Of a DNA stretch of 5,346 nucleotides, positions 541-2,486 are shown one piece after another. The DNA comes from Escherichia phage ECO95 1-6-1. Each line of letters opens with the position of its first letter. Position 1 is the stretch's first letter. The stretch lies in sequence record OR845275.1; one strand, given 5' to 3'. The notes beneath the pieces were generated by a model, which worked only from the letters and a program-made list of their open reading frames with translations, did no database searches and was not told where the DNA came from. The translations under genes and the position numbers were made by a program.

Positions 541-606
541 AGATCCTTTGATCTTTTTTTGCAAATTGCCTCTATGGCTGTATCACCACCATAGAGACAC
601 AAACTT

Positions 607-1755
607 TTAATTGAAGTTAGAGCACAATAAAGGCTCAACCTCTTCATTCAATAAGTTATACAATTGCTGTCCTATCTTCTGAGCTAGCAACACAGGAACT
701 GCATTACCAATCTGCCTCATAGCCTCCCCCCAAGCTCCTGCAATCAGAAACTCTCGAGGAAAAGTCTGAAGAAGCTTCCCTTCATAAACCGTAAAATAAC
801 GAACAGTCCCATCCTCATACCTAATCATATTTTCACCTCCAGGTACGCCATGAGCGCCAGCCTTAAGTGTTTTTGAAGGCAAATCGATATAACTTCCAGT
901 ATGACCAGGATAAACTCGAGCGCCATCTTTAAAGATATGATCTCCAATACCATGTGACTCATATGGTTGAGGAACATTCTTTAATGCGTCCCTAACAGTA
1001 ACCCAGCTTTTCCCCGATGGGGGGAAAATACCAAAACGTTTCATTAAACGCTCAGAAATACCTTTATCTATAACCGCATCAATATTATGCTTTCGCCAAT
1101 AGTCACCAGTAACATGCTGTTCCCACAGTAATTTTTCTTGAGTATGCGTTACGCTTGGAAAAGACCATTTTTTATTCAAATCACTTCGAACACCAACAAT
1201 TATGACCCGTTCCCTAATTTGTGGAACTCCATAATCAGCTGCATTGATCAATTTAAAACTGACATCATATGTACACCCACAGTGTTTATCCTTGCGAGCT
1301 TTTCTTAATGCATCTAGATGTATTCTCCAATCACTTACATTACTTAACGATAAACAAGGATAAGTCAAACGAAGAATTATGTATTCAAAATAATCCGCAA
1401 ATGATTTTCTAAGCAACCCTTTAACATTTTCAAAAATAAAAGCTTTTGGTTGCAATACTTCAATTGCTTTTATTGCAAATGGGAACATATCCCTAGAGTC
1501 ATCATGAGCTTTATGTTTTCCGCCCAATGAAAATGGTTGGCAGGGAGGCCCGCCAGCAACAATATCTATTTTATCTATAGATGAAAGGTCATAATTTTTA
1601 ATATCTCCCTGAAATACCTTCTCCTCATCAAAATTAAGTCGCAAAGAATCACATGCATGCTTGTTTAACTCAACAAATCCTACATGCTGAAATCCTGCCA
1701 ACTCTAGACCTTTAGCCAAACCGCCGGCTCCTGAAAAAATCTCTAATGATCTCAT
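607..1755 (-). CDS. eco29kIM: Type II DNA (cytosine-5)-methyltransferase, Eco29kI-type (382 aa)
   Basis: Translation shows canonical C5-MTase motifs: motif I FSGAGG, motif IV GPPCQPF (catalytic Cys), motif VI FENVKGL, motif VIII QIRERV, motif X GNAVPV. ATG at 1755-1753 overlaps the stop of the upstream R gene by 1 nt (TAATG). The 382-aa length equals what I recall for M.Eco29kI; identity to that specific enzyme is inferred, not searched. Confidence 0.88.
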   Translation of the reverse strand: MRSLEIFSGAGGLAKGLELAGFQHVGFVELNKHACDSLRLNFDEEKVFQGDIKNYDLSSIDKIDIVAGGPPCQPFSLGGKHKAHDDSRDMFPFAIKAIEVLQPKAFIFENVKGLLRKSFADYFEYIILRLTYPCLSLSNVSDWRIHLDALRKARKDKHCGCTYDVSFKLINAADYGVPQIRERVIIVGVRSDLNKKWSFPSVTHTQEKLLWEQHVTGDYWRKHNIDAVIDKGISERLMKRFGIFPPSGKSWVTVRDALKNVPQPYESHGIGDHIFKDGARVYPGHTGSYIDLPSKTLKAGAHGVPGGENMIRYEDGTVRYFTVYEGKLLQTFPREFLIAGAWGEAMRQIGNAVPVLLAQKIGQQLYNLLNEEVEPLLCSNFN

Positions 1756-2399
1756 TATGTAAAATTACTCTTAGAAAAATACTGTTTAATTCTCTCCTCA
1801 ATAAAGTATGGCTCAGAATGAACACCTGTACATTTCTCAGCCCACTCCCTGCCAGGATGTATTACATCCCAATCAGATTTAGCTTGCGCAAATCGCCCGG
1901 CACCAGGGGTATGATTTCCAAAGCCATCAACAACTGTATTCCACAAAGGCTTATAAATTTTAATAAGAGCGGCCTCAACTGTACTAATCATATCAGACCC
2001 CGTAGCCTCAAATATAACAAAGCGACATGAAAAATCACACAAATTTAGATTCGATGTTTTTGCTATATTTCGGCTATGTTCTCTAATTCTATTAGATAGT
2101 TCAGAACCAGCCCTAGTTTCATGATCACTAATTCTAGACTGACGCCAACCAGCAGGAACAGCCTTGCCAACATAAATAGGAAGGTTATATGCCAACCTAT
2201 TTATACGAGAGTATTCATCATATAATGAATAATGCCCTGTATAGTAAAGAGCATACACCCCAGCACCTTGAAACCGTTCCGGTGGTGGTAATGAATGAAC
2301 AGGCGTACCACTAAAAAAACGAACGGCATCTTTTATTAACTCTAGGAAAGAGTCATTTCTATAAACATGCTCAGATCTATCAAATTTCTTATTGTGCAT
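1755..2399 (-). CDS. eco29kIR: Type II restriction endonuclease, GIY-YIG family, Eco29kI-type (214 aa; predicted CCGCGG specificity)
   Basis: ATG at 2399-2397. The protein has a GIY-YIG-like core (GVYALYY ... PIYVGKA). Tyr49, Tyr76, Arg104, His108, Glu142 and Asn154 sit exactly at the positions I recall as the catalytic residues of R.Eco29kI, and the length is 214 aa. It lies directly upstream of, and is translationally coupled to, a C5-MTase. Specificity is inferred from family membership only. Confidence 0.8.
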   Translation of the reverse strand: MHNKKFDRSEHVYRNDSFLELIKDAVRFFSGTPVHSLPPPERFQGAGVYALYYTGHYSLYDEYSRINRLAYNLPIYVGKAVPAGWRQSRISDHETRAGSELSNRIREHSRNIAKTSNLNLCDFSCRFVIFEATGSDMISTVEAALIKIYKPLWNTVVDGFGNHTPGAGRFAQAKSDWDVIHPGREWAEKCTGVHSEPYFIEERIKQYFSKSNFT

Positions 2400-2486
2400 T
2401 ATGTTTTCCGAAAGGTTTTTATATTAACACTCCTACTCAACATCACCTATGATACGATCATAAAGCTGATACCCAAAACCATACAC
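2400..2486 (-). promoter_or_regulatory. AT-rich leader/promoter region of the R-M operon containing the palindrome TATGAT-acg-ATCATA (2448-2462)
   Basis: Intergenic stretch between the cer-like core and the R start codon. The perfect 6-bp-arm inverted repeat is seen directly. Promoter hexamers could not be assigned confidently by eye. Confidence 0.35.

Follow-up and report, generated by a model that had tools for sequence, protein, structure and literature searches.

The AT-rich restriction-modification island of the ColE1-type plasmid pC: boundaries, composition and a likely route of exchange

Where exactly does an AT-rich restriction-modification (R-M) segment begin and end in a ColE1-type plasmid, and how did it come to lie between the RNA II promoter and the cer site? 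The question is raised by a stretch of DNA of 5346 nt (sequence record OR845275.1, Escherichia phage ECO95 1-6-1; here called the window), for which an earlier reading of the letters alone (the original prediction) had proposed an AT-rich R-M cargo island at 600-2486. Our analysis makes it very probable that this segment is the Eco29kI R-M module of plasmid pC and that it stands in the cargo slot of the ColE1 backbone; a source of lower GC (guanine plus cytosine) content is plausible, and reassortment by Xer recombination at cer is likely.

The window matches plasmid pC (NC_003457.1, circular, 5269 bp) over its full length at 100% identity (megablast against a plasmid collection), the alignment with the pC record showing one nucleotide difference and a terminal redundancy of 77 bp. 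It represents a circle of 5269 bp in which positions 5270-5346 repeat positions 1-77, both ends being the same DNA. There is no difference of substance from pC of Salmonella enterica serovar Enteritidis PT14b, which is the same molecule, and near-identical plasmids of 5268-5270 bp were found in Salmonella and E. coli. Plasmid pC and its R-M system are already known and were published in 2002: the title of Gregorova et al. (FEMS Microbiol Lett 2002;214:195-198), as given in PMC5864857, PMC8073726 and PMC5841774, has pC encoding a restriction-modification system. The predicted AT-rich island is correct and already known, an ordinary case of a published R-M pair in the usual ColE1 cargo slot. It carries little weight as a discovery, as the plasmid, the R-M system, the enzyme mechanism, its regulation, the killing and the ColE1 architecture are all published; the useful yield lies in the exact bounds of the cargo (559-2486), a single cer core (2487-2515) and the documented absence of mobile-element ends. 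The island and its parts, including two open reading frames (ORFs), are as follows.

559-2486, minus strand: AT-rich cargo island of 1928 bp and 38.2% GC, an Eco29kI-type R-M operon (homology breakpoints and GC statistics)
1755-2399, minus strand: R.Eco29kI-like restriction endonuclease of the GIY-YIG type, 214 amino acids (ORF, Pfam PF09517)
607-1755, minus strand: M.Eco29kI-like C5-cytosine DNA methyltransferase, 382 amino acids (ORF, Pfam PF00145), its start overlapping the R stop codon
2400-2486, minus strand: 87-bp region upstream of the R gene, with 5 differences from pECO29
559-606, minus strand: 3' end of the island, non-coding, in which 567-599 forms a hairpin with a stem of 12 bp (inverted repeat search, RNA folding)

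The base composition of the island differs strongly from that of its surroundings. The GC content is 38.2% in 560-2486 versus 54.3% in the other 3343 bp (chi-square 124.9, p = 5.3e-29), and the 38.1% obtained for 600-2486 agrees with the 35-40% against a backbone of about 55% that had been estimated by eye. The sliding-window and codon-usage check put forward in the original prediction gave the same result: a 200-nt GC profile runs at 30-45% over about 500-2500 and at 50-62% elsewhere, while the GC content at third codon positions (GC3) is 27% in the M gene and 25% in the R gene as compared to 47-69% in mbeA, mbeB, mbeC and rop. In its composition the R-M module is thus foreign to the ColE1 backbone, which is enterobacterial. 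Maximum-likelihood segmentation of the circle with two breakpoints placed the low-GC block at 490-2497; by composition alone the left edge is fuzzy because the RNA I/RNA II promoter region itself has about 45% GC. Of the two sharp transitions expected at ~600 and ~2486, the right one proved exact, while the left edge, at 557-559, lies ~40 bp further out.

Two minus-strand ORFs of 214 and 382 amino acids fill the island and overlap by one base in TAATG. The R product matches RE_Eco29kI (PF09517) with E = 1.8e-69 and 233 bits (cut-off 30.8) over profile positions 1-163 of 164, which places it in this family, and the M product matches DNA_methylase (PF00145) with E = 4.2e-59. R lies upstream of an overlapping 5-methylcytosine (m5C) methyltransferase gene on the same strand, the arrangement described for Eco29kI (PMC3113576). 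The Eco29kI plasmid pECO29 (NC_001537.1) agrees with pC in gene order, in the 1-nt TAATG overlap, in the lengths of R and M and in the slot; the DNA identity is 98.6-98.9%, both over the R-M region and over the island with the origin, and each protein differs at 2 residues (S109G and N119D in R). The Pfam domains and this identity establish that the segment is an R-M module, as had been predicted.

Residues Y49, Y76, R104, H108, E142 and N154, defined experimentally as active-site or DNA-binding residues of R.Eco29kI (PMC1952068), are all present in the R protein of pC and are invariant across an alignment of 13 family sequences. The recognition site of Eco29kI is CCGCGG (PMC1952068); from the 99% protein identity to R.Eco29kI we infer that pC R would cut the same site, and by homology pC M is the m5C methyltransferase predicted to protect it. 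By homology to pECO29, the region 2400-2486 should contain the eco29kIR promoters Res_P1 and Res_P2, which mapping in Eco29kI located between -72 and +34 relative to the start of Res_P2; in that system two promoters lie upstream of R, M is transcribed from an internal promoter, and antisense promoters lower R expression (PMC3113576). Eco29kI restricts lambda about 5e5-fold, and on pBAD33 it was shown experimentally to stabilise the plasmid and to kill plasmid-losing cells post-segregationally (PMC11324026). The pC system would, by direct homology, restrict incoming phage DNA and stabilise its plasmid by post-segregational killing; for the latter, also proposed in the original prediction, the experimental support comes from the Eco29kI homologue. 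Eco29kI-type islands are present in 11 of the 5426 complete E. coli genomes searched, always on small plasmids and always in the ori/cer cargo slot, and no chromosomal copy was found among these genomes.

The island occupies the variable cargo slot of the ColE1-type backbone, between the upstream edge of the RNA II promoter and the XerD arm. Three plasmids served as BLAST comparators: a colicin E1 plasmid of 6647 bp (pSF-468-3, L003), a plasmid with an SsoII-type R-M system (L004) and pSM107_2 (NZ_CP130671.1, L005), which carries two unknown genes in the slot. The GC content of the cargo is 42.5%, 35.0% and 32.3%, respectively, and 38.2% in pC, compared to 54.3-54.6% in the backbones. This architecture of conserved and variable parts with differing GC content has been described with pC as the R-M example (PMC5864857), and the turnover of cargo in the ColE1 family has been reviewed (PMC8683028). 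The colicin E1 plasmid resembles pC in a backbone that is 92-97% identical (ori, rop, oriT, mbe and the cer accessory sequences) and in the slot with its AT-rich cargo; it differs in that this cargo is a 3.3-kb segment with exc2, exc1, cea and the lysis gene and without R-M genes, in an 8-nt cer central region (TCCCTTAA) and a different XerC arm, and in the RNA I/RNA II specificity region (23 differences in 318-417). The statement that the equivalent position in ColE1 holds the colicin E1 operon is therefore right, with exc1 and exc2 to be added. That one module was exchanged for another is borne out insofar as the slot is variable and holds differing cargoes; that the R-M genes took the place of the colicin operon in a direct swap cannot be demonstrated, because no colicin remnant was detected in 558-2486 (BLAST against the colicin E1 plasmid) and the slot holds many different cargoes.

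The homologs of the R-M genes bear on the source of the AT-rich DNA. The Eco29kI family yielded 3337 matches and is spread over phyla at 58-68% identity. The closest non-identical relatives (81-89% protein and ~73% DNA identity) were found on metagenomic contigs and share only the coding sequence, 645-2390. Those at 81-83% protein identity lie on contigs of 25-35% GC, their R-M genes having 35-36% GC and matching the surroundings, while an enterobacterial-looking chromosomal relative has R-M genes of 43% GC within flanks of about 50% GC. When a low-GC relative (L012) was searched against the plasmid collection, only the known Eco29kI plasmids and weak ParA-type matches were found. At 72 genomic loci the GC content of the R gene tracks that of the flanks (r = 0.70) with a mean deficit of 5.4 points (standard deviation 4.3), and none of the 72 has a deficit as large as the 16 points of pC. 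Since this deficit exceeds those of all 72 loci and close relatives reside in low-GC DNA, a donor of lower GC content is plausible, as the GC3 values also suggest. The horizontal acquisition from a lower-GC donor that had been predicted thus stands as plausible.

Alternatively, the low GC content could be intrinsic or selected, through avoidance of CCGCGG, the AT bias of accessory DNA or silencing by nucleoid proteins, without any lower-GC donor. The mean R-gene deficit of the family and the AT-richness of every cargo examined at the slot (32-43%) are in line with this explanation, and pC contains no CCGCGG site in its whole length; the latter fact is of little weight because only about one site is expected from the base composition. 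The deficit of pC, above all those of the genomic loci, the location of close relatives in DNA of matching low GC content and GC3 values of 25-27%, which have the appearance of a genome-wide mutational signature rather than of site avoidance, make a purely intrinsic cause rather improbable, and we retain a lower-GC donor as the better explanation.

One further observation concerns a chromosomal relative. A 158-kb metagenomic scaffold (L009) carries at 5001-6825 an R-M pair that is 89% identical to that of pC (R of 219 and M of 386 amino acids, 43% GC), located between genes of the cutA-dsbD type and an autotransporter gene; this chromosomal copy shares no flanks with pC.

The junctions of the island were mapped by alignment to ColE1-family plasmids, as the original prediction had recommended, and lie at 557-559 and 2486/2487. 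On the left, backbone homology ends at 557 (L003), 558 (L004) and 559 (L005), about 20 bp upstream of the RNA II -35 element. In an evenly spread sample of 60 of the 813 matching plasmid records, left-side homology never extended past 558 outside the pC/Eco29kI group, while the matches to records of this group continue into the methyltransferase gene. Two backbone features next to this junction are needed here.

527-549, minus strand: backbone terminator-like hairpin with a U-run, overlapping the RNA II -35 element (terminator scan, folding)
393-498, plus strand: RNAI (Rfam RF00106; 66.6 bits versus a gathering score of 47)

We take the RNA II promoter to lie on the minus strand at 510-538, with the -10 element TAATCT at 515-510 and the -35 element TTGAGA at 538-533, by homology to ColE1/pMB1; the RNAI match is consistent with this placement. 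The 527-549 hairpin is conserved in the ColE1-type plasmid, L004, L005 and pECO29 and is the last backbone element before the left junction. The minus-strand RNA of 520-612 folds into two strong hairpins (599-567, and 549-527 with the U-run) with -31.4 kcal/mol and z = -4.8. Transcription of the R-M operon runs along the minus strand in the direction of the RNA II promoter, and the hairpin at 527-549 could insulate the RNA II primer promoter from cargo read-through.

On the right, the homology breakpoint coincides with the outer edge of the XerD arm of the cer core, homology resuming at 2487 (L003), 2479 (L004) and 2486 (L005). In an evenly spread sample of 60 of the 1437 records matching on this side, homology started at 2483-2487 or 2510-2513 in every listed record except the pC record and CP098945.1, an outlier with homology from 2429 at 82% identity. 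The placement of the cargo boundary at the outer edge of the XerD arm by mapping at the nucleotide level is a modest addition to what is known. The cer site consists of the following parts.

2487-2515, minus strand: cer core, the only such site in the plasmid (alignment and motif table)
2515-2505, minus strand: XerC arm, GGTGCGCGTAA (on the plus strand TTACGCGCACC at 2505-2515)
2504-2498, minus strand: cer central region of 7 nt, TGCGACG (on the plus strand CGTCGCA)
2497-2487, minus strand: XerD arm, TTATGGTAAAT (on the plus strand ATTTACCATAA at 2487-2497)
2516-2700, minus strand: cer accessory sequences of the ColE1 type, about 96-99% identical to those of the ColE1-type plasmid, L004 and L005

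With an 11-bp XerC arm, a central region in the range of 6-8 bp, an 11-bp XerD arm and ~180 bp of accessory sequence on the XerC side, the site has the structure of a cer-type Xer site for dimer resolution. All compared plasmids can be aligned exactly from ATTTACCATAA (2487-2497); beyond the XerD arm, on the cargo side, plasmids with different cargoes have no related DNA. The central region CGTCGCA is common to seven ColE1-type plasmids (pC, pECO29, pECL18, pKPN2, L004, L006 and L007); the central regions of ColE1 (the 8 nt given above) and of L005 (CGACAATA) differ from it. The accessory sequences of pECO29, pKPN2 and L006 are of a type different from that of pC. An R-M system is carried by five of the seven plasmids with the CGTCGCA central region, and the XerC arms fall into three variants, which do not track the type of accessory sequence.

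Another explanation is that a self-mobile element (for example a transposon, an insertion sequence (IS) composite or an integron-like cassette) entered between ori and cer, and either is the island or brought it in. In other ColE1 plasmids the cargo slot is indeed occupied by transposons and IS elements (PMC5864857, PMC8683028), an ISKpn21 element lies 3 nt from the XerC arm in NZ_CP138690.1 (L098), and one R-M relative (L011) adjoins a resolvase gene. For pC such an element is hardly credible. Missed mobile-element ends had been named as a finding that would overturn the original prediction; our repeat search over 400-2750 detected no inverted or direct repeats that pair the two junctions, in agreement with the original impression that IS elements, transposon inverted repeats and target-site duplications are absent there. 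The 1928 bp contain no transposase or integrase ORF, R and M being the only ORFs of at least 60 amino acids that fill the island; terminal inverted repeats and target duplications at 559/2486 are lacking as well. The R-M module is without mobility functions of its own. In addition, the island is always found in the same slot with the same junctions, and its homology to R-M relatives stops at the coding sequence.

A module flanked by two Xer sites was considered as well. The plasmid contains one exact XerD arm and one exact XerC arm and no second Xer-like core site, so Xer cores on both sides of the cargo, as in modules of the pdif type, were not found. Near the left junction, 513-523 on the minus strand and 556-566 on the plus strand weakly resemble Xer arms; they were rejected as a second site, since they are on opposite strands and the number of such matches is that expected by chance. 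Like the pdif modules of Acinetobacter plasmids and the integrative mobile elements exploiting Xer (IMEX), in which accessory genes are moved via XerC/XerD sites without a dedicated recombinase (PMC6764390), pC would exchange its cargo through an XerC/XerD site; unlike these elements, which have two flanking Xer sites or integrate at dif, pC has a single core site, and its exchanged unit appears to be the half of the plasmid bounded by cer and ori/oriT.

The comparison of pC with pECO29 points to the site of the exchange. Over the stretch that begins at ~5140, takes in ori, the RNA II region, the island and the XerD arm and ends with the central region at 2504, the two plasmids are about 1.4% divergent; from the XerC arm (2505) onward they diverge heavily. 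Unlike pC, pECO29 has a length of 3895 bp and no mbe mobilisation genes; both have the same XerD arm and cer central region, and the XerC arm and accessory sequences of pECO29 are of the other type, common to L006 and pKPN2. The same switch is seen in an independent pair, pECL18 and pKPN2, whose SsoII-type R-M system is also the cargo of L004: no differences are seen on the cargo side, in the XerD arm or in the central region, and the two sequences part with the XerC arm and the accessory sequences. As with pC and pECO29, one R-M cargo is found here on two kinds of backbone, one mobilisable and the other small and not mobilisable. In the mob/cer region pECL18 and pC are 97% identical, and they agree in the central region and in the position of the homology switch. 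Unlike in pC, the R-M genes of this pair are divergently transcribed and are unrelated to those of pC, and the origin regions are only ~87% identical. The pair was the subject of a study by Zakharova et al. (Mol Genet Genomics 2002;267:171-178); according to the accounts given in PMC8683028 and PMC6764390, both Zakharova 2002 and Tran 2012 put forward recombination at cer and oriT for plasmids of this kind.

The switch at the core in two pairs points to Xer recombination at cer, and a central region common to these plasmids, from which those of ColE1 and L005 differ, is what an exchange by XerC/XerD at this place predicts; the Xer route is likely. The sequences themselves show the identity, composition and breakpoints of the island, the lack of transposon ends and the switch at the core in two cargo pairs, while catalysis by the Xer proteins, the place of the second crossover and a low-GC organism as first donor are inferred. 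Two co-resident ColE1-type plasmids whose cer cores agree in the central region would be joined there by XerC/XerD, and the fused plasmids would separate by a second exchange in the conserved ori/oriT region; a block consisting of the ori, the cargo and the XerD half of cer would thereby move without a transposon. The presumed oriT nick, CTGG|CTTA, would lie at 4956-4963. The block shared by pKPN2 and pECL18 has its other end at about 4956 of pC. From 4966 or 4982, just past this nick, to ~17, pC differs densely from the backbones nearest to it (L004, L005, pECL18 and the ColE1-type plasmid), which together with the end of the shared block suggests oriT as the second exchange point. The original prediction had found the mechanism of exchange not evident; it was right that mobile-element ends are absent, and recombination at the cer core, as already proposed in the literature, is the likely answer. 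A further small addition is the finding of one and the same switch of homology, at the cer core, with two R-M cargoes that are unrelated to each other; it lends support to an idea already in the literature, the trading of cargo among small multicopy plasmids by way of Xer sites.

It is also conceivable that the boundaries reflect nothing other than selection on the origin and cer, the cargo having been replaced by illegitimate or RecA-dependent recombination with no role for Xer. Both breakpoints lie exactly at the edges of functional elements, as conservation alone predicts, the backbone is a mosaic with many exchange points, and the XerC arm of pC is unlike those of ColE1 and L005 even though the accessory sequences match. 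This explanation leaves it unaccounted for that in two independent pairs identity extends from the cargo across the XerD arm and the central region and is lost at the XerC arm, and that all plasmids involved have the same 7-nt central region, as Xer exchange requires. We therefore consider selection alone to be unlikely, and prefer exchange by Xer recombination at cer.

Several observations weigh against the reading of pC as a lower-GC R-M module reassorted by Xer. Breakpoints at the edges of essential elements are also expected from purifying selection alone, and the switch at the core was seen in only two cargo pairs. The core and ~45 bp of adjacent accessory DNA are conserved enough for RecA-dependent exchange. 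The mismatch of the pC XerC arm with ColE1 and L005, at 2507-2509, in spite of common accessory sequences, is unlike the prediction of a single clean exchange on the XerC side. The second crossover is gradual, pC and pECO29 being 7-8% divergent over 4987-5139 and nearly identical thereafter. Regarding the source, no donor was found among the matches listed from the genome collection (best identity at most 67%, in many phyla), no junction was recognised that could date from the primary capture of the R-M genes by a ColE1 plasmid, and part of the AT-richness may be intrinsic, the family being ~5 GC points below its flanks and all cargo of the slot being AT-rich.

A wider interpretation can be offered tentatively. 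The plasmids with the CGTCGCA core could form a guild compatible in recombination, swapping blocks of the ori, an R-M cargo and the XerD half-site; this seems possible to us, though more doubtful than not. Such swaps would connect mobilisable with non-mobilisable backbones and would combine Xer recombination at cer with an exchange at or near the oriT nick. If so, the sequence of the cer central region, and not incompatibility or host, would set which plasmids trade cargo, which would extend the proposals of Zakharova 2002 and Tran 2012 without adding a new category.

A third example of the core switch was sought in NZ_CP138690.1 and rejected. In this plasmid (~5776-7938) the homology to L005 ends 3 nt past the XerC arm, and the transposase gene of ISKpn21 (ISNCY family) follows ~100 bp further, which suggests an IS inserted beside the Xer site and no crossover.

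The backbone outside the island carries rop, oriT and the mbe mobilisation genes (ORFs; RefSeq lists Rop, MobC, MbeB and MbeD). With rop, mbe genes of the MOB-P (HEN) type, oriT and an RNA I antisense gene within the RNA II primer region, pC has the features of a ColE1-type replicon, and its origin region is 87-99% identical at the DNA level to ColE1-family origins. The region with rop, the mbe genes and oriT is 96-99% identical to those of the ColE1-type plasmid, L004 and L005. In the RNA I/RNA II specificity region, taken as two windows of 100 nt in 318-517, pC shows 0-1 differences per 100 nt from pECO29 and L005, 23 and 5 from the ColE1-type plasmid, and 20 and 38 from L004. As the mob region is best matched by L004, unlike the specificity region, the backbone itself is mosaic.

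ColE1 replicons do not require a plasmid Rep protein. The 52-amino-acid 'replication initiation protein' that RefSeq places inside the RNA II primer region (213-371, plus strand; 94-252 in the pC record) is therefore probably a spurious call, propagated in many records. The 9459-bp plasmid NZ_CP083894.1 (L008) resembles a partial pC dimer with frameshifted duplicate genes; it was rejected as a new backbone and is probably an artefact of long-read assembly, not a natural cointegrate. Finally, the cargo of pSM107_2 begins with a tRNA-Lys(CTT)-like gene at 1698-1786, which adjoins the junction at the RNA II promoter and is followed by two unannotated ORFs in DNA of 32% GC.

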